A stretch of 62,322 bases of DNA from an uncultured Ruminococcus sp. (GTDB taxonomy: Bacteria; Bacillota; Clostridia; Oscillospirales; CAG-272). A program made the position numbers and the translations under genes. The stretch spans positions 1 through 62,322 of the forward strand of contig CACZZA010000004.1 in assembly GCA_902785485.1 (NCBI GenBank), in the 5' to 3' direction. Below, piece after piece: positions 2,585 through 48,476 of this stretch. The notes beneath the pieces were generated by a model, which made no database searches, was not told the origin of the DNA, and saw nothing but the letters and a program-made list of their open reading frames with translations. Position 1 is the stretch's first letter, and the number at the start of each line of letters is the position of its first letter.

Positions 2585-4075
2585 TCAGTTGAGTTCGAAC
2601 GATTTGTAGGTCTTGTCTATATCGGCTTTTGTGGCTTTCTCCACTCTTGCGTAACTGCGCGAAATATTCGCTGTCGTGATGTCGACGTCAAGCACGCTCG
2701 TGCGGATGCTGCCGAAGTCGTAGTAGAGACCTATGTCGTACACGCAGTTGTCGCGCAGCAGGCGCAGATACCTTTCGGATTCCTCGTCGCGGGTGTAGCG
2801 GCGGGTCAGCAGAGTCTCGAACCACGTGGGAAGCGTGATCGTCGAGGAGTAGAAGTTCATATCCTCGATGATGCGTCCGGTGCGGTCGACGTCCTCGATG
2901 ACGGACGGAAGGGCGAACAGGTTGGTGTTGACCTGGTACATCGTAAGATAGTCTTTCTGGTTGGAATCGTATTTCGGGAACGGGATGACTCCGAATTCGC
3001 TCTCCATATCGGCGAACTGCGTGATGCAGTCGTCGCTCGTGTAGTGGAACATATACAGATCCTGCGTGAACAGCGAACGCAGATAGTCCCACTTGTGGGG
3101 GAAGCCGTGCGGGTCGACTGAGCTTGAAGTCATATTGTAGCAGACGTTGGCGTCGGAGAACACCGCTTTGAGTTTTTCGTAGGCGGTGACGGTCTTGTCC
3201 TTGTCCGCCATCAGAGTAGGCTCGGGATAGCCGTTTTCGTTGTTGGTCGTCGCGCGGATGCCGAACGCGTAGAGGAACATCCTCGGGTTATGATTTTCGG
3301 TCAGCGTGCCGTACTGGTCGATCTCGGTCATACGTCCGTCGCCGTTCATATCTTTGGAAACGCTCTTTACCATTTCCGCCCATTTGTCGACGGTCCACTC
3401 GTTGTTCTCGATGAGGTCGTACGGGGATTCAAGTCCGTAATCGGAGACGATCTTTTTGTTGAAGAATACGACGAATCCGAGCGCGTGGATGTTGAGCGCG
3501 TTGTTGGTGAAATAAAGCTTGTCGCCGATCAGCAGTTCGGAATTCGCGTTCTGGTCCCAGTAGGGCTTCGAGAGGTCGAACCTCGGTACGTCGCGCAGAT
3601 TGTACAGCAGGTTTTCTTTCGCCATCGTCGCGAGAGTCGAGCACGACGCCAGTATGACGTCGAAGTCGGTCGAGCCGGACATTATCTGGGCGCGCGCGGT
3701 CGAAAGCAGGTCTGACGTGCGGAACTGCGTTATGGTTATGTTGTATTTTTCTTCGAGTATGTTGTTTCGTCTGATCAACGCCGACGGAAGAGGAGCTTCT
3801 TCCTGCCCTTCCTCCGCTACGATATAACGGGTGTTGTAGTCGTTGCCCTCTCTCGTGAGGAAGGTGAATTCGTATCCGCCGTAATCGACAGCTTCGATAT
3901 GCGGATCGTCGTCGAGCAGCGCCGGGTCGAACGCCGTTTCTCCGTCTTCGAGAGTTTCGATCCCGGTAACGCCCTTCGTCTCTTCCGCGTCCGATCCTCC
4001 GCACGAAGCGAGAGTGAACGCGAACGCTGTCAGAACGAAACAGAACGCCAGGATAAGTGACAGGGTCTTTCTCAT
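2585..4075 (-). CDS. extracellular solute-binding lipoprotein (CUT1/LplA-like), paralog 3 (more divergent)
   Basis: ORF 2585..4201, trimmed to the ATG at 4075 (RBS AAAGGAG). MRKTLSLILAFCFVLTAFAFTLASC is a lipoprotein signal. Collinear at the protein level with paralogs 1 and 2. Confidence 0.8.
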   Translation of the reverse strand: MRKTLSLILAFCFVLTAFAFTLASCGGSDAEETKGVTGIETLEDGETAFDPALLDDDPHIEAVDYGGYEFTFLTREGNDYNTRYIVAEEGQEEAPLPSALIRRNNILEEKYNITITQFRTSDLLSTARAQIMSGSTDFDVILASCSTLATMAKENLLYNLRDVPRFDLSKPYWDQNANSELLIGDKLYFTNNALNIHALGFVVFFNKKIVSDYGLESPYDLIENNEWTVDKWAEMVKSVSKDMNGDGRMTEIDQYGTLTENHNPRMFLYAFGIRATTNNENGYPEPTLMADKDKTVTAYEKLKAVFSDANVCYNMTSSSVDPHGFPHKWDYLRSLFTQDLYMFHYTSDDCITQFADMESEFGVIPFPKYDSNQKDYLTMYQVNTNLFALPSVIEDVDRTGRIIEDMNFYSSTITLPTWFETLLTRRYTRDEESERYLRLLRDNCVYDIGLYYDFGSIRTSVLDVDITTANISRSYARVEKATKADIDKTYKSFELN

Positions 4076-4348: not shown

Positions 4349-5890
4349 ATGGAATATTTGATTTACGTATTCTGCGCTTTGGCCGGGATCCTCATCGGCT
4401 TCTTCGTAGGTTTTCTGATCCGCAAGAAGATCGCCGAGGCTAAGATCGGAAGCGCCGAAGAAGAAGCAAAGAAACTGGTCGAAGAGGCAAAGACTCAGGC
4501 TGAGACTCAGAAAAAAGAAGTCCTGCTTGAGGCAAAAGAAGAAAGCCTTCGTCTTAAAAACGAGCTTGAACGTGAGATAAAAGACAGACGCAACGAGGTT
4601 TCGAGACTCGAGCGGCGCGCCGCGTCGAGAGAAGAAGCGCTCGAACGCAAGATGGATCAGCTTGAAAAGAAGGACGAGACCTTAAACCGCAAGATCAAAG
4701 AAAACGACGAACTGAAAGTCAAACTCGAAGAGATACGCGAGCAGGAGTTCAAAAAACTCGAAGAGATCGCCGGGATCACCGCGGCGGAAGCCAAGAAGGA
4801 GCTTGTCCAGCGCATTGAGGACGAGGTCAAACACGAAGCCGCCCAGAAGATCATGGAGATCGAGGCTCAGCTCAAGGAAGAAGCCGACGAGAAAGCGAAA
4901 AACATCATCTCGCTCGCTATCCAGCGCTGCGCCGCGGACCACGTTTTCGAGACCACCGTATCCGTTGTTCCTCTGCCTAACGACGACATGAAGGGACGCA
5001 TCATCGGCCGCGAGGGCCGCAACATCCGCGCTATTGAAACGCTGACGGGCGTCGATCTCATCATCGACGACACTCCCGAGGCGATCACCCTTTCGGGATT
5101 CGATCCCATACGCCGCGAGGTCGCCCGCATAGCGCTTGAAAAGCTCATTTCCGACGGACGCATACATCCCGCCCGCATCGAAGAAATGGTCGAAAAGGCG
5201 CGCAAGGAAGTCGACAACTCCATCAAACAGGCGGGCGAAAAGGCGATATTCGAGACCGGCGTACACGGGATCAACAACGAACTCGTCAAGCTGCTCGGAC
5301 GTCTTAAATACCGCACGAGCTACGGTCAGAACGTACTCCGTCATTCCATCGAGGTCTCTCTCCTCTCCGGCATGATCGCCGATGAGATCGGCGCCGACGC
5401 GACTCTCGCGAAGAGAGCGGGCCTGCTCCACGACATCGGTAAGGTGCTGACTCAGGAGGTCGAGGGATCGCACGTACAGATAGGCGTCGACCTTGCGAAG
5501 AAATATAAGGAGAGCAAGGACGTTATCCACGCTATCGAGGCTCACCACAACGACGTGGAGCCGAGAACGGTCGTCGCTATGATAGTCCAGGCGGCTGACG
5601 CCATTTCGGCAGCCCGTCCCGGCGCAAGGCGCGAAGATCTCGAGAACTACATCAAGCGTCTGCAGAAGCTCGAAGAGATCGCAAACTCGTTCCCAGGAGT
5701 CGAAAAATCCTATGCTATCCAGGCGGGACGCGAAGTCCGCATCATGGTCAAACCGAACGAAGTCAACGACGAGCAGATGGTGCTTATCGCCCGCGACATC
5801 GTCAAGAAGATCGAGGAAAACCTCGAATATCCCGGTCAGATCAAGATAAACGTTATACGCGAAAGCCGCGCGACCGATTACGCGAAGTGA
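4349..5890 (+). CDS. rny: ribonuclease Y
   Basis: N-terminal TM helix and a Lys/Glu-rich coiled coil. KH motif [15 protein letters not shown] domain (LLHDIGK, EAHH). AAGGAGG RBS 6 nt before the ATG at 4349. Confidence 0.95.
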
Positions 5891-5982
5891 TCGGCTGACG
5901 GTTTACATATAAATATTTATATAGAACTCTAACCGAAACAAGGACGAAACGTCTTGATATATATTTATATGAAGCAAAACCG

Positions 5983-6026
5983 CACGGTCCGTTTAAGAAA
6001 CAAAAAACGGACCGTGTATCTTTTTT
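5983..6026 (+). terminator. intrinsic terminator/attenuator between rny and ymdB
   Basis: CACGGTCCG...CGGACCGTG stem followed by TCTTTTTT. Confidence 0.6.
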
Positions 6027-6039
6027 CCGGAGGCAGAAA

Positions 6040-6816
6040 ATGAAAATACTCGCTTTGGGCGATATTGTAGGAAAGAGCGGAGTCGACGCTCTGTGCGCGA
6101 CGCTGTGGGAAATTCGCAGGGAAAACGGGATAGACTTCGTTACAGCCAACTGCGAAAACGCGGCGGAGGGCAACGGGGTCGACAAGGCGTCCGCCGAACG
6201 CCTGCTCGCGTCGGGATGCGACGTATTGACCTCGGGCAACCACGTATGGAAACGAAACGATATATATTCGTTCCTCGACGACTCTCCGTATATCGTCCGT
6301 CCGATGAACTATCCTTCCGACGCGCCCGGCAAGGGATGGACGGTGGTCGACGCGCGCGGGATACGCGTCCTTGTTATGAACGTACAGGGGACTGTGTATA
6401 TGGAAAGCCTCGACGACCCGTTCCGCGCAGTCGAGAGGACGCTCGAACGCGAAAAGGGCGGATACGACGTCGCCGTTCTCGACGTCCACGCGGAGGCTAC
6501 GTCCGAAAAAGCGGCGCTGGCTCGGTGCTTCGACGGAAAAATAACATTCGTCTTCGGCACGCATACACACGTGCAGACTGCCGACGAGCGGATACTCCCA
6601 AACGGGAGCGCGTTTATCACCGATCTCGGTATGTGCGGTCCCGACGACTCGATACTCGGAGTAAAGTGCGACAACGTGATACGCAAGCTCAGAAGCAAGC
6701 TCCCCGTGAGATTTGAACCCGCCCCGGGCAAGGTCACTCTGCACGGAGCCGTGGTGACGCTCGGGCACAAAGGCGGTGTTTACCCGGTCGAAAAGATCGA
6801 AAGATTTGTAAAATAA
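6040..6816 (+). CDS. ymdB: YmdB-like metallophosphoesterase (2',3'-cyclic-nucleotide phosphodiesterase family)
   Basis: MKILALGDIVG...NCENAAEGNG...GNH...GTHTHVQT metallophosphoesterase motifs. Conserved position directly after rny. Confidence 0.9.
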   Translation: MKILALGDIVGKSGVDALCATLWEIRRENGIDFVTANCENAAEGNGVDKASAERLLASGCDVLTSGNHVWKRNDIYSFLDDSPYIVRPMNYPSDAPGKGWTVVDARGIRVLVMNVQGTVYMESLDDPFRAVERTLEREKGGYDVAVLDVHAEATSEKAALARCFDGKITFVFGTHTHVQTADERILPNGSAFITDLGMCGPDDSILGVKCDNVIRKLRSKLPVRFEPAPGKVTLHGAVVTLGHKGGVYPVEKIERFVK

Positions 6817-6821
6817 AAAAG

Positions 6822-6871
6822 CAGACCGTTCTTCGCGTTGCATCCCGCCGCGAAAAGAACGGTCTGTTTTT
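6822..6871 (+). terminator. intrinsic terminator after ymdB
   Basis: CAGACCGTTCTTCGCG...CGCGAAAAGAACGGTCTG stem followed by TTTTT. Confidence 0.7.
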
Positions 6872-6990
6872 ATCAGTCGTTCATATCCGGTCTGACCTCG
6901 TAAAGTATGAAATAATCAGAAGATCGCAGTTTTCGATATAGTAAAAAAACACGCTTTGCAACATTTTTTTAAGAAAATCGCAAAAAAGTA

Positions 6991-19318: not shown

Positions 19319-19626
19319 TTAGGCAGGCGGCGCGAATTTGAACACGGTTTTGGCGGGCATAGACCCGCCCATCCGTCAGAAAACATCTCGGAAATACACA
19401 AAGTATTCCCTTCACTGTTTTCTTCGGCTGAACAGCTCTCTGCTCCGTCAAAACTCTTCGACCCGAAAGCGATGGATTCAAAACTCTTCGACCCGAAAGC
19501 GATGGATTCTCGAGTCGTTTTTGGTGCGGAGGACGCCGCCTTACAAGCGTTTGGCAAGGACGACAAGCCGAAAACAGCCGAAAAGACGCGCTTTCAGGCG
19601 TGTTCAAATTCGCGCCGCCTGCCTAA
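19319..19626. repeat. R1-family structured repeat, divergent copy C, bounded by a perfect 28-bp inverted repeat
   Basis: TTAGGCAGGCGGCGCGAATTTGAACACG (19319-19346) is the exact reverse complement of 19599-19626. The interior carries the R1 hairpin AATAC-ACAAA-GTATT (19393-19407) inside helix AGAAAACA/TGTTTTCT. It also has a perfect 30-bp tandem duplication (19449-19478 and 19479-19508). Confidence 0.8.
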
Positions 19627-19643
19627 AAGGTCCCTCTTGCGTT

Positions 19644-19724
19644 CTCCGCGTCAAATTCTTATTTGCCTTCCTTTGTAAGTTTTTGAAAGAGCGCGAGAGG
19701 ACTTTTCTCAAAAAGTCCTCTCGC
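19644..19724 (+). repeat. R2-family repeat (AAATTCTTRTTT...TTTGTAAG...GCGAG-hairpin)
   Basis: Aligns with 47106-47189 (same orientation) and 46751-46837 (reverse complement). Hairpin GCGAGAGGAC/GTCCTCTCGC at 19693-19724. Confidence 0.7.
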
Positions 19725-19790
19725 ATTATTACTCGCATTATTACATTTTACGCCGCGCCGAAATACAGCCCCTTGCGTTTTTATATCGGA

Positions 19791-20861
19791 TCATCTCTTT
19801 TCCTTCATAACTTCCCGCGTAGAGGCGAGGAGTTTTTTTACGCTTGCGGTGAGGGTCTTGCGGGTCTGGGGAGGGAGCTTTGCCGCGGCTTTGAGAATGG
19901 CGGAATAGGACTCGCGTTTACGGGAATTCAGTTCGCGGATGGTGGAGGCTCCGGAGGCTTCGATGGAGTCGAAAACGGCGCTGCACAAAACCCGAAGTTC
20001 ATCGTCCGACATTTCGGAGAGCCACTTTTCGAGCGTCTCGTCGAGAAAAACGCTCCCTTCGGCGCGATCCGCCTCGACGAAAGAATTACCGATCACTTCC
20101 CAGGTCAGCGGAAAGTGCTGATGAAATCCGGTCGCTGACGAGCGGACTATCTTCTTTTCTTTTTTGGACGACATTATGATCCCGACGACCGAGCTTTCGG
20201 GAATGATGAGCCTGACGCGGTCGATCACGGAGAGATATTCTTGCGTTTCGGTGACTCCTTTTCTGAATCCCGGCCCGTCGTTTGAATAGATCTCGCGTAT
20301 TCGCGTTTTCGTATCTTCAGAGCAGAACGCCGCGCCGTAGACTGCGAGGTTGCCGCCTTTTGAATGACCGCCGACGATGAGCTTTGCTTTCGTTTTTCCG
20401 GCGACGTCGTCAAGATATTCCGCCGCTTCTTTTTGTCCCTCGGTCGAGTCGGGGAGCGCAAGCTCAAAGTCTTCTTTCCAGCCGACTATCGTGTTGTCCG
20501 TTCCCCGGAACGCGGCGTACGCGAGGTCTTTTTTTATGTTGAACAGGGTCGCGCTGAACTGCACGCCGCGTTTCCCGTCGGTGTCGCTGACGTGGTCGGA
20601 TACGCGGACGTTGCCGAAACGGTTCGACGCCGCGCATTTTTCAAGCAGAGGGTATGGGTCGTTGTTGCGCGAGACGCTTTTGAGTCCCTTTTCGGAGTAG
20701 ACGCGGCAGACGTCGCGCATGGCGAGGGAGCTTCCTTCCGGGATGACCCGGCTAAGGTCGAGATATGCGAGGGTCGAAAAGATGAGGTTGTCGACCTCGT
20801 TGAAGGGCGAGGCGGAAAACGAAAGATCGCCGCGCCAGTCGACGTAATCAAGTATGTTCAT
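19791..20861 (-). CDS. DUF2974 (Mbeg1-like) alpha/beta-hydrolase family protein
   Basis: MNILDYVDWRGDLSF...FNEVDNLIFSTLAYLD N-terminus and a GGHSKGGNLA nucleophile elbow, both typical of DUF2974. Confidence 0.7.
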   Translation of the reverse strand: MNILDYVDWRGDLSFSASPFNEVDNLIFSTLAYLDLSRVIPEGSSLAMRDVCRVYSEKGLKSVSRNNDPYPLLEKCAASNRFGNVRVSDHVSDTDGKRGVQFSATLFNIKKDLAYAAFRGTDNTIVGWKEDFELALPDSTEGQKEAAEYLDDVAGKTKAKLIVGGHSKGGNLAVYGAAFCSEDTKTRIREIYSNDGPGFRKGVTETQEYLSVIDRVRLIIPESSVVGIIMSSKKEKKIVRSSATGFHQHFPLTWEVIGNSFVEADRAEGSVFLDETLEKWLSEMSDDELRVLCSAVFDSIEASGASTIRELNSRKRESYSAILKAAAKLPPQTRKTLTASVKKLLASTREVMKEKR

Positions 20862-37820: not shown

Positions 37821-37880
37821 ATAGATCGAGAGAGCTTTTGCCGACATTCTGACCTTGTTTGAAACAAGGTCGGTTTTTTG
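37821..37880 (+). promoter_or_regulatory. PyrR-type transcription attenuator (binding-loop-like motif plus terminator)
   Basis: GAUCGAGAGAGCUU resembles the PyrR binding-loop consensus ARUCCAGAGAGGCU. It is followed by the GACCTTGTTT-G-AAACAAGGTC hairpin (37851-37871) and a T6 run, 38 nt before the pyrC ATG. Confidence 0.6.
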
Positions 37881-37917
37881 AGAGGGCAAAGGTTTTATCC
37901 TGCGGAAAGGTAAACAG

Positions 37918-46284: not shown

Positions 46285-46716
46285 ATGATAATAGGACAGA
46301 TAATCAACGGCATCGTGCTTGACCACATCACCGCCGGACGCGGAGTCGACATATACGAAACGCTCCGCCTCGGAGAGCTTGACTGCACCGTCGCGATGAT
46401 ATTCAACGCCGACTCGGTCAAGATGGGCAAAAAGGACATCATCAAGATCGGAACTCCGATAGATATAGACCTCGACGTGCTCGGTATCATCGATCCCGGC
46501 ATCACCGTAAACTATATCCGCAACGGAGAGGTCGCGAAACGCGAACGTATCTCGCTCCCGGCGACGATACGCGGCATCCTCAAATGCAAAAATCCGCGCT
46601 GCATCACGACGACCGAACAGGGACTTACGCAGGAGTTCCGCCTCTGCGACGAGGAAAACAAGGTCTACCGCTGCGTTTACTGCGAGACGAAAGCGGATAC
46701 GTCAAGTCTGAAATAA
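46285..46716 (+). CDS. pyrI: aspartate carbamoyltransferase regulatory subunit
   Basis: NGIVLDHI...IIKI...CKNPRCIT...YRCVYCE with a zinc-binding Cys4. The ATG lies 2 nt after the pyrB stop. Confidence 0.9.
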   Translation: MIIGQIINGIVLDHITAGRGVDIYETLRLGELDCTVAMIFNADSVKMGKKDIIKIGTPIDIDLDVLGIIDPGITVNYIRNGEVAKRERISLPATIRGILKCKNPRCITTTEQGLTQEFRLCDEENKVYRCVYCETKADTSSLK

Positions 46717-46753
46717 GAAACGCTAAGAAACGCTAAGAAACGCTAAGAAACGC
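46714..46753 (+). repeat. 4 x 10-bp perfect tandem repeat TAAGAAACGC starting at the pyrI stop codon
   Basis: Read directly: 46714-23, 46724-33, 46734-43 and 46744-53 are identical. Confidence 0.95.
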
Positions 46754-46837
46754 GAGGGGGACCTTTTAAGGAAAGGTCCCCCTCGCGCTCCCCTCTAAAC
46801 CTTACAAAGGGAAGGGAGATAAACAAGAATTTAGCGG
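46751..46837 (-). repeat. R2-family repeat, left inverted arm of the pyrI-downstream element
   Basis: Its reverse complement aligns with 47106-47189 and 19644-19724. Hairpin GCGAGGGGGACC/GGTCCCCCTCGC. Confidence 0.75.
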
Positions 46838-47105
46838 CGTATTTGAAAGACGAATGATAGTCGAAAACTTCACCTTAAATCGGTGAGTGAGCGGTTTTGT
46901 CAATAGCTCACCCCTATGGGGGAGCTGTCGACGAAGTCGACTGAGAGGGCACGCCTGCGGTTGGTTACTATTCGTAATACCCTCTCCGTCACGGCGGGAC
47001 GGACACCGCCGCGCCACCTCTCCCATGGTGAGAGGTACCCGTTAGTGTTCGCTCGCCGCCTCGAGGTGAAGTATGTGCCTATCGTTTGTAACGGCAATAG
47101 TTGCT
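46838..47105. other. 268-bp GC-rich, hairpin-dense core enclosed by the R2 inverted arms (unclassified structured element)
   Basis: Closing helix ACTTCACC/GGTGAAGT plus GATAG/CTATC. Internal perfect hairpins GTGAGC..GCTCAC, CCCC-TAT-GGGG, GTCGAC-GAA-GTCGAC, GAGAGGG..CCCTCTC, GGCGG..CCGCC and CCTCTC..GAGAGG. No credible ORF. Confidence 0.6.
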
Positions 47106-47189
47106 CCGCTAAATTCTTGTTTATATTTCTGTCCCTCTGAAAGGTTTAGAAAAGGGTGCGGGAAAAACCTTTCCTTAAAAGGTTTTTCC
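47106..47189 (+). repeat. R2-family repeat, right arm
   Basis: CCGCTAAATTCTTGTTTAT...GGTTTAGA...GCGGGAAAAACC/GGTTTTTCCTGC hairpin. A partial third copy (TATTCTTGTTTATATTTCT) lies at 47209-47232. Confidence 0.75.
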
Positions 47190-47236
47190 TGCGCTCCCGT
47201 TCTCTCCTATATTCTTGTTTATATTTCTATCCCGAT

Positions 47237-47276
47237 CAAAAAACGTGGGACCTTTGTTAGTAAGGTCCCACGTTTT
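47237..47276 (-). terminator. intrinsic terminator of the yitT-like gene
   Basis: AAAACGTGGGACC...GGTCCCACGTTTT stem, with a U-tract on the minus strand. Confidence 0.8.
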
Positions 47277-47281
47277 ATGTT

Positions 47282-48160
47282 TTATTTCAACACTTCCCGC
47301 TCTTCGGTAAAGCCTCTGCCTCTGACCTCTTTTATCTGCGTTACGGTGATGAACGCGTGCGGATCGGCGCCTTTGATGAGTTCGGTCGCGTCGTAGAGCT
47401 TACGCGGAGGGATGACGCAGATGATGCCCTTTTGATTTTCTCCGAGCTTTCCGGTCTCTATCATCGCCATCGTGACTCCGGCTTCAAGCGTGTTGAGCAG
47501 AAGCTCTCGGAGTTTTTCGTATTCCTTGGAGATTATGAACAGCTGTATCTGACTCTTGCCGACGAGCATAACGCGGTCGAGCAGGAGCGTTTCGAGGACG
47601 ACGACGATTATCGCGTAGAGGGTCGATTCGGCGGGAGCGAATATCGCCTGTCCGCCGACGACGATTATATCGCAGAGCCACACAAATATGGACACGGGCA
47701 GATGGAACACCTTTGCGAGAACGAGGTTGATTATATCCGAGCCGCCCGTAGACGAGCCTACTCTCATCACGAGTCCGAGCGAGATGCCGAGCAGACACCC
47801 GGCGAAGATCGACGCGGTGAGCGGGTCGGAGGTCATATTTCCGATCCCCGGGATGCGCTGGAACAGTTCGAGAAACAGAGGATATATGACCGACGACACG
47901 ATTGTCGTCATAACGAACGCTTTGCCGAGGACGATCAGTCCGAGTATGAGCATAAGGATATTCAGTATAAGGACGAACATGGGCACGTCGATCTGCGGTA
48001 TCAGCTTGCTCATGACTATACCGATACCGGTCGTACCGCCCATTATTATATCGTGCGGTATGACGAACGCCGCAACGAGAAACGCGAGCAGGGCGTTTCC
48101 GGCGACGATCGAAGCCGTCGTCAGAGCGGCGTTTTTCGCTTTCTTTTTTGTGATGGACAA
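47282..48160 (-). CDS. YitT-family membrane protein (DUF2179 C-terminal domain)
   Basis: Polytopic N-terminal part with GGTTGIG motifs. The soluble C-terminal segment is typical of YitT/DUF2179. Confidence 0.8.
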   Translation of the reverse strand: MSITKKKAKNAALTTASIVAGNALLAFLVAAFVIPHDIIMGGTTGIGIVMSKLIPQIDVPMFVLILNILMLILGLIVLGKAFVMTTIVSSVIYPLFLELFQRIPGIGNMTSDPLTASIFAGCLLGISLGLVMRVGSSTGGSDIINLVLAKVFHLPVSIFVWLCDIIVVGGQAIFAPAESTLYAIIVVVLETLLLDRVMLVGKSQIQLFIISKEYEKLRELLLNTLEAGVTMAMIETGKLGENQKGIICVIPPRKLYDATELIKGADPHAFITVTQIKEVRGRGFTEEREVLK

Positions 48161-48399: not shown

Positions 48400-48476
48400 G
48401 GCGGAATAGCTCAGCTGGCTAGAGCATTCGGTTCATACCCGACAGGTCGTTGGTTCAAATCCGACTTCCGCTACCA
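48400..48476 (+). tRNA. tRNA with CAU anticodon (elongator Met, or Ile2 if lysidine-modified)
   Basis: The cloverleaf folds by hand: acceptor GGCGGAA/TTCCGCT, D arm GCTC..GAGC, anticodon loop TTCATAC, T arm GTTGG-TTCAAAT-CCGAC, encoded CCA. Confidence 0.9.

Follow-up and report, generated by a model that had tools for sequence, protein, structure and literature searches.

Among described genomic repeats, the closest counterparts of the element considered here are the repetitive extragenic palindrome (REP), bacterial interspersed mosaic element (BIME) and REPIN sequences of Enterobacteria and Pseudomonas (see also PMC2817692). In enterobacteria, REP/BIME clusters hinder degradation by 3' exonucleases and insulate convergent genes from read-through. 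We analyzed the segment that separates the convergent genes pyrI and yitT (46745-47280) in a 62,322-nt stretch of DNA from an uncultured Ruminococcus sp. (assembly GCA_902785485.1, contig CACZZA010000004.1, positions 1 to 62,322; hereafter the window), and compared it with these systems. Like the REP, BIME and REPIN elements, the repeats at this locus are short GC-rich imperfect palindromes present in many copies (here, in the loci fetched for comparison); most lie outside genes, many of them next to gene 3' ends or where two genes converge, and they occur singly, as inverted pairs in both orientations, and in clusters. In addition, their presence differs between close strains, and by analogy they might act as co-transcribed 3' untranslated region (UTR) structures able to stabilize the upstream mRNA. 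However, a REP unit has one hairpin, is 20-40 nt long and starts with GTAG, whereas the inner module of this locus spans ~54 nt and has two hairpins, one with a conserved and one with a variable stem, and a conserved CUGAGAGGG tail; moreover, its hosts are Clostridia (Oscillospirales-type), it is also found in genuine phage genomes, and no REP-associated tyrosine transposase (RAYT) has been linked to it.

The BOX element of Streptococcus pneumoniae is likewise a modular intergenic repeat of Firmicutes, non-coding and without a transposase of its own, in which repeatable sub-boxes form stable stem-loops; however, it showed no sequence similarity to the present locus, and its fixed boxA-boxB(n)-boxC order contrasts with a module that occurs in either orientation and in arrays. 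The ERIC/IRU and Correia elements also resemble this locus, as intergenic imperfect palindromes of at least 100-150 bp that are co-transcribed as long hairpins and show insertion polymorphism. They have defined ends, and the Correia elements have TA target duplications, whereas none were seen here and the ~450-bp segment is a composite of two unrelated families (for imperfect palindromic repeats resembling miniature inverted-repeat transposable elements, MITEs, see also the general review PMC3184786).

We proposed that the segment is probably a mosaic of BIME/REPIN-like palindromic repeats lying in the 3' region common to two convergent transcription units. We observed its composition from repeats, palindromy along its whole length, compensated changes in its hairpins, the abundance of the inner family, gain and loss between near-identical genomes, and fast restructuring of the locus.

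The nested palindrome between pyrI and yitT

A sequence-only reading of this DNA had described two inverted arms of ~85 bp flanking a 268-bp hairpin-dense core. The arms are real: 46761-46837 and 47106-47183 showed 80% identity over 80 nt (E = 1.3e-9), and the 19-mer CCGCTAAATTCTTGTTTAT is exact on both sides (46819-46837 on the − strand and 47106-47124 on the + strand), with a further copy bearing three mismatches at 47204-47222; these 3 matches in the window compare with 0.03 expected. The description is, however, incomplete. The reverse complement of 46745-46965 aligned end to end with 46966-47200 (153 of 204 positions identical, 75%; score 126 vs 14 ± 5 for shuffles), and the 5' half of the core is a diverged reverse complement of its 3' half. 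Because the complementarity continues past the arms along the whole length, what was taken for a core belongs to a single imperfect palindrome of ~450 bp, centered near 46965, and forms the inner part of its nested structure. The whole palindrome folded as a single nested stem, at −237 kcal/mol (z = −14.5) for RNA and at −123 kcal/mol (z = −13.1) for DNA. The core by itself had minimum-energy folds of −120 kcal/mol (z = −7.7) on the + strand and −101.8 kcal/mol (z = −4.4) on the − strand, and the closure through ACTTCACC/GGTGAAGT and GATAG/CTATC that had been read from the sequence was present in the minimum-energy fold. The parts of the locus are listed below; bit scores refer to R1, a covariance model built from copies of the inner module.

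46745-47280: shared 3' intergenic region of pyrI and yitT, filled with repeated palindromic elements
46714-46753, + strand: four tandem copies of the decamer TAAGAAACGC, running from the pyrI stop codon into the foot of the left R2 hairpin
46751-46837, − strand: left R2 unit, with hairpin (46751-46787), middle box (46794-46811) and 5' box (46819-46837); nhmmer E = 9.8e-30
46838-46899: left half of closing stems P1-P3, pairing with 47042-47105 (41 nt at 71% complementarity, fold, and palindrome alignment)
46900-46953, + strand: B-type module, AGCUCACCCC-UAU-GGGGGAGCU, GUCGAC-GAA-GUCGAC, UGAGAGGGC; 53.4 bits, this copy being in the seed of the model
46954-46975: central spacer separating the two modules and forming the palindrome's loop
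46976-47041, − strand: A-type module, inverted, its + strand reading CCCUCUCCGUCA, hairpin, GCCACCUCUCCC-AUGG-UGAGAGG; 22.1 bits, E = 3.1e-5
47042-47105: right half of the closing stems, P3'-P1', a hot spot of between-strain variation
47106-47192, + strand: right R2 unit, with 5' box (47106-47124), middle box (47133-47150) and hairpin (47158-47192); nhmmer E = 1.3e-27
47202-47279, + strand: third R2-type unit, a partial box (47204-47232) and the bidirectional yitT terminator hairpin (47237-47279)
19640-19732, + strand: R2 copy in a second convergent intergenic region, 67 nt downstream of an Mbeg1-like gene (19794-20861, − strand); nhmmer E = 3.7e-21

The outer layer consists of the units that we termed R2, each laid out as a GC-rich hairpin followed by two conserved boxes. 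A nhmmer profile made from three R2 copies recovered exactly those three (E ≤ 1e-21), with an additional weak match over the partial copy and the yitT terminator; the copy previously noticed at 19644-19724 was among them. The middle box had 3 matches in the window, one of them at 19669-19686, against 0.13 expected. Compensated changes distinguish the stems of the three hairpins, which agrees with the covariation reported from the letters alone. The partial fourth arm was likewise recovered: 47202-47240 matched 47104-47142 at 82% identity over 39 nt with a spacing of 98 nt, and the two units on the yitT side thus form a 98-nt tandem repeat. The hairpin core GGGACC..GGTCCC is common to the yitT terminator unit and the left R2 hairpin.

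Every R2 unit, when read from hairpin to boxes, is directed with its adjacent gene: 46751-46837 with pyrI, 47192-47106 and 47279-47204 with yitT, and 19732-19640 with the Mbeg1-like gene (neighboring genes were identified by Pfam). The flanking genes were those expected, PyrI on the + strand at the end of the pyr operon (its stop codon ends at 46716) and YitT on the − strand. Thus, the left unit read on the + strand has the order and orientation of a terminator for pyrI, the right unit read on the − strand is a second tandem terminator-type unit behind yitT, and the copy at 19640-19732 has terminator orientation for the Mbeg1-like gene. It is because pyrI and yitT converge that the R2 units look like inverted arms. 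The R2 hairpins resemble intrinsic terminators in their position shortly after stop codons and in having the orientation of the gene. A textbook bidirectional terminator, with a U-tract, is formed by the hairpin at 47237-47279, and 47240-47276 was the single proper bidirectional terminator in a terminator scan. The hairpins at 46751-46787, 47158-47192 and 19693-19724 are correctly placed and oriented for terminators, with weak U-rich tails; the left one is a perfect 16-bp stem that no canonical U-tract follows. In contrast to intrinsic terminators, neither the left nor the right R2 hairpin has a proper U-tract, and both are followed by conserved boxes, a feature foreign to ordinary terminators. 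In IMG/VR, the 18-base box pattern CYAAATTCTTGTTTATMT gave 55 loci, all of them chance-length matches, so R2 looks lineage-specific. Judged by sequence, the arms are terminator-type repeat units of this lineage, and the yitT terminator is itself one of them. The earlier reading had named, as the case that would count against it, arms that were ordinary species-specific terminator repeats present at hundreds of sites with unrelated intervening sequence; the terminator-type, gene-oriented units come close to the first part of this case.

The double-hairpin module in chromosomes and phages

The inner layer carries an inverted pair of a module of ~54 nt, composed of a hairpin GCUC(C/U)CCC-UUU-GGG(G/A)GAGC, CUG, a hairpin of variable sequence, and then CUGAGAGGGC. 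Its invariant single-stranded positions are the CUG between the hairpins and the CUGAGAGGG 3' tail, and there is no GTAG. Model R1, whose alignment contained 69 distinct copies, gave two matches over the 62-kb window, both at pyrI-yitT and arranged tails-in, and nothing else. Support independent of the seed came, for the B-type copy, from its fit to the pattern of 70 IMG/VR loci and from blastn matches of virome scaffolds that cover the stretch; the A-type copy was not in the seed, and 29 nt of it (47007-47035) are identical in a locus (L013) of an Oscillospiraceae metagenome-assembled genome (MAG). At 37852-37890, a terminator-like hairpin followed by UGAGAGGGCAAA scored weakly with the module model (10.7 bits, E = 0.17), which is probably a chance match.

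We next considered the module beyond the window. In the GTDB genomes, a 26-mer from the core was found in one Oscillospiraceae MAG, that of L013, in two diverged copies 827 bp apart, where the order of the hairpins is permuted: CCCUCUC, hairpin, CCUCUCCCAUGGUGAGAGG, linker, GCUCCCCCUUUGGGGGAGC, hairpin, UGAGAGGG. Against a phage collection, blastn with the core showed that human-faecal virome scaffolds share its motifs, some with the 3' half only; 45 virome scaffolds of this collection carry the module, and no plasmid does. A 21-mer pattern of the module gave the 70 IMG/VR loci mentioned above, and the A-type hairpin 19-mer had no match in the viral scan. The core matched no plasmid, and a core 20-mer in a metagenome scan gave nine matches of 20-23 nt, all of them chance. 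Within 601 kb of fetched loci, which had been chosen for carrying the pattern, R1 made 278 matches. Taken together, these records show a module family that is widespread in Oscillospirales-type bacteria of the gut and rumen and that also occurs in genuine phage genomes.

Pairing in the 69-copy alignment was strong, at 94.1% of cells compared with 83.8% when shuffled and at most 59% with the partner slid. Double changes occupied 103 cells against 30 expected and supported both hairpins: in hairpin 1, one base pair is C-G in 41 copies and U-A in 25, and in hairpin 2 both partners vary at three of the five pairs. Among unique instances, pairs were arranged tails-out in 16 cases and tails-in in 9, and there were 16 tandem neighbors; solo modules also occurred, and tandem arrays had a period of 66-67 nt. 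Relative to genes, 9 modules were same-sense and 15 antisense, a rough split based on greedy ORF (open reading frame) calls and the only usable one, as 50 of 108 modules fell "inside" spurious ORFs of GC-rich contigs. Extragenic palindromic repeat mosaics are well known as a kind; the double-hairpin family, however, is absent from Rfam 15, with no family match in 11 module-bearing loci, and from limited literature searches by repeat sequence and topic. The same holds for the A/B pairing in both permutations and for the presence of the family in Clostridia chromosomes and phage head-gene junctions.

Two of the fetched loci had further features. One IMG/VR contig (L037; 1691-2068, 4547-4678 and 6448-6647) carries the 66-67-nt arrays in up to 5.7 copies with 92-97% matches. 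In L013, direct repeats of ~210 nt (5888-6098 and 6716-6925) flank a 168-aa gene that, by its translated sequence, looks like a CDP-alcohol phosphatidyltransferase; each repeat holds a module pair together with a terminator-like hairpin and a sequence resembling an extended −10 element.

Gain and loss of the module could be followed in phage genomes. The contig L021 and eleven related phage contigs are ~94-98% identical, and we took them to be genuine phage because PHROGs found virion genes on L021 (portal, peptidase, major head and internal virion protein). Among ~95%-identical contigs there were four indels, each a module-bearing element in a short gene-gene junction; three could be measured from alignment boundaries, at ~136, ~170 and ~256 nt. 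In the empty alleles the genes are 1-19 nt apart or have overlapping stop and start codons, and the filled alleles supply their own ribosome-binding site. Three inserts of L021 (5540-5675, 6119-6288 and 8124-8312) have an extra conserved ~110 nt after the module, GGCAGGCCGG...GCGTAAAATG.AGTGCCCTGCGACAGAGGGCAGA, and then the ribosome-binding site. The window has no counterpart of this larger, ~165-nt unit, which may be a separate phage-specific element.

The locus itself was also compared among relatives. A contig of the same species (L001) is identical across the region except for having three copies of TAAGAAACGC instead of four. Another contig (L002) is collinear with the window over 7.2 kb, and all 30 differences fall in 47040-47131, at 55-146 nt from the end of that contig, where they could partly be an assembly artefact; the variant has GAGCCGG in common with L144, a relative with 94% YitT identity. 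Behind the yitT terminator, the same kind of element is kept in loci whose YitT homologues are 94% (L144-146) and 92% (L147) identical. In L144, the box after the terminator joins directly to the P1' middle stems, the 98-nt R2 unit being missing, and hairpin 1 of a canonical B-type module is split in its loop by a palindromic insertion of ~57 nt. This insertion (~1215-1290), CCCCAACGGAAAACCGTATATTTCCGTCGGGG plus flanks, is an example of a palindrome within a palindrome. L147 has the terminator, the box and a second hairpin with a covarying stem. At 75% YitT identity the contigs break or have a scaffold gap directly after yitT, and at 68% the neighborhood differs and the module is not present. 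These comparisons indicated that, in a narrow clade, the site is retained while its parts are independently replaced, duplicated and interrupted.

Proposed origin as a repeat mosaic and competing explanations

In the mosaic that we favor, the outer layer comprises one R2 unit behind pyrI and two in tandem behind yitT, the one nearest yitT containing its real terminator, and the inner layer is the inverted module pair, with the conserved hairpin GCUCYCCC/GGGRGAGC, the variable hairpin and the tail. The modules may have spread as non-autonomous elements moved in trans, most plausibly as single-stranded DNA hairpins moved by a putative HUH-type enzyme, as RAYT moves REP; alternatively, they could have spread by recombination between module copies. 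Transcription of the pyr operon probably continues past the left hairpin, which is weak, as far as the bidirectional terminator (47240-47276), and the pyr mRNA would then carry the whole ~450-nt structure as its 3' UTR. By analogy with REP/BIME clusters, the structure would act there as a 3' exonuclease barrier and as an insulator between the convergent transcripts, with no product of its own.

Several observations weigh against this proposal. The + strand of the core folds ~18 kcal/mol better than the − strand, and the middle stems (46838-46899 with 47042-47105) have 8 G.U pairs on the + strand against 3 A.C mismatches, which leaves room for selection on a + transcript; across the whole palindrome, the corresponding counts were 14 vs 11 and not significant. 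The same middle stems have no relatives outside this locus, the left half 46838-46899 finding none elsewhere in the window, so the nested-insertion history is one that we infer, and an in-place inverted duplication followed by decay would look similar. The window holds one module locus and two R2 loci only, and the position of the L002 differences near a contig end bears on the evidence for restructuring. The borders of the phage indels have diverged, and neither clean target-site duplications nor exact empty sites were found there. An approximate IS200 TnpA query gave no tblastn match in the window or in 80-odd module loci. Finally, the roles in termination and mRNA stabilization are assigned by analogy.

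A wider proposal, which we put forward tentatively and hold to be the less probable outcome, is that the double-hairpin A/B family could be an undescribed REP/REPIN-like mobile family of Oscillospirales-type Clostridia, also residing in phage gene junctions, and either moved as single-stranded DNA by a putative HUH-type enzyme or persisting as a functional RNA junction. The pairs in the window and in the MAG would then be circular permutations of one junction, this RNA junction could be a processing or stability signal common to hosts and phages, and the pyrI-yitT palindrome would have arisen from module and terminator-repeat families nested into each other.

The idea of a non-autonomous mobile element, raised by the sequence-only reading, lives on in the inner modules and their presence/absence polymorphism, but not in the form of a single MITE with unique cargo. 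Under that explanation, the terminal inverted repeats would be either the ~85-bp arms or the perfect 19-bp ends ATAAACAAGAATTTAGCGG / CCGCTAAATTCTTGTTTAT, and a unit of 306-440 bp would have been moved by a transposase encoded elsewhere. The 19/19 identity of the ends within arms otherwise 80% identical points in this direction, although by our estimate such a perfect 19-nt run is expected by chance in about 1 of 6 cases. A solo R2 copy at a second locus, beside another inverted-repeat-bounded element, and the breaks in contigs of relatives at or near the region also favor it. However, the flanks (GAAAC|GCGAGG and CCTGC|GCTCCC) show no direct repeat, and the inverted symmetry continues outward past them; no second copy of the core or whole unit was found in the 62-kb window, nor any copy of the whole unit in IMG/VR, where the box pattern gave chance-length matches only. 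Furthermore, the orientation of R2 units with genes, one of them being the yitT terminator, fits terminator repeats better than transposon ends, and in L144 the inner part is kept without the R2 unit, which shows that the parts vary independently. We therefore regard a single MITE as unlikely.

It is quite unlikely, in our assessment, that the core or the whole palindrome is a functional + strand RNA, either a small RNA or a cis-acting 3' UTR element, whose junction is under selection and of which the pairs elsewhere are circular permutations. The very stable + strand fold and the compensated changes in both module hairpins would suit such an RNA; palindromes covary, however, whether their structure matters in DNA or in RNA, and in the module the G.U pairs did not significantly exceed the A.C mismatches (13 vs 7, p = 0.26), as in the palindrome. 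The helix CCCUCUC/GAGAGGG is present in both pair arrangements, so that the junction topology is kept under permutation, and the locus is kept behind yitT in relatives with 92-94% YitT identity. On the other hand, sequence and architecture shift sharply between close relatives, the module is gained and lost between near-identical phages, and it also occurs as solo halves and tandem arrays, with no strong orientation bias. In addition, the two halves are inverted copies of each other, and no promoter-like site was found in 46500-47500. The earlier reading had checked several known RNA signatures by eye and found none that fits; Rfam 15 at gathering score gave two tRNAs only in the whole window, and at a loose E-value nothing meaningful in 46600-47400, where the best match was a ylbH leader over the yitT terminator (24.2 bits vs a gathering score of 50). 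The lack of a family match, the inverted halves, the two module orientations and the absence of a significant G.U excess told against a stand-alone structured RNA gene, which that reading had also offered. It had further stated that the core has no plausible ORF; ORFs of up to 74 aa do exist inside it, but the one that was checked, spanning the core at 46916-47137 on the + strand, had no homologue among 5.8 billion proteins.

Inversion of the enclosed segment by a site-specific recombinase acting on the arms (phase variation), suggested by ~85-bp inverted arms around ~270 bp, is highly improbable, as no recombinase or invertase gene was found among the called genes within ~6 kb on either side, the interior has no promoter-like site and its tested ORF no homologue, inversion of a palindromic interior would change little, and a single orientation was found: the window agrees with L001, the one other contig covering the element in full, and with L002 over the right arm and right half as far as its contig reaches.

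Other candidates were rejected one by one: a retron noncoding RNA (no reverse transcriptase nearby), an integron attC site (no R/L box pattern), a CRISPR-like array (the 66-67-nt array units are near-identical throughout, with no unique spacers), an IS200/IS605 guide RNA or a bridge RNA (neither a transposase nor a recombinase lies nearby, and Rfam gave no match), and permuted self-cleaving ribozymes (no Rfam match even at a loose E-value).

The segment should be annotated as a repeat-built 3' intergenic structure, and not as a small RNA gene, a riboswitch or an invertible switch. Its inner module is an abundant repeat of gut and rumen Clostridia, common to bacterial chromosomes and true phage genomes. 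The module breaks assemblies, with contigs of relatives stopping at it or within it; because it differs between strains that are otherwise identical, it could serve as a strain marker; and it is a source of false "structured RNA" candidates. Should a mobilizing enzyme exist, REP/RAYT-type biology would extend to Clostridia and phages.

Neighboring genes and other repeats in the window

The called genes within ~6 kb of the locus are the pyr operon, yitT, radical SAM proteins and ORFs without a Pfam match. Two adjacent tRNA genes lie upstream of yitT:

48400-48473: tRNA gene, Rfam 62.9 bits
48479-48550: tRNA gene, Rfam 59.1 bits

Short tandem repeats adjoin the outer foot of R2 hairpins at both R2 loci, namely TAAGAAACGC at 46714-46753 and two copies of TCGCATTATTAC at 19721-19744, after the 19693-19724 hairpin. 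Both repeats start within the last bases of the stem, and this suggests slippage at the foot of the R2 hairpin; at pyrI, the copy number of the decamer is variable.

The second inverted-repeat-bounded element occupies 19319-19626, in the convergent region between the 6PGD (+ strand) and Mbeg1-like (− strand) genes, and the R2 copy at 19644 is 17 nt away. Its arms, TTAGGCAGGCGGCGCGAATTTGAACACG and the complement, are perfect over 28 bp and enclose 252 nt, and together with R2 it folded at −182.5 kcal/mol (z = −10.8). It neither resembles the pyrI-yitT core nor matches the module. Within this element, 19448-19507 is a perfect 30-nt tandem duplication, TCAAAACTCTTCGACCCGAAAGCGATGGAT, in two copies. 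At the start of the window, three direct copies of at least 300 nt (1-300, 1490-1789 and 3167-3466) are 85-93% identical, with a further pair at 908-1207 and 2585-2884; these copies are probably tandem paralogous genes.

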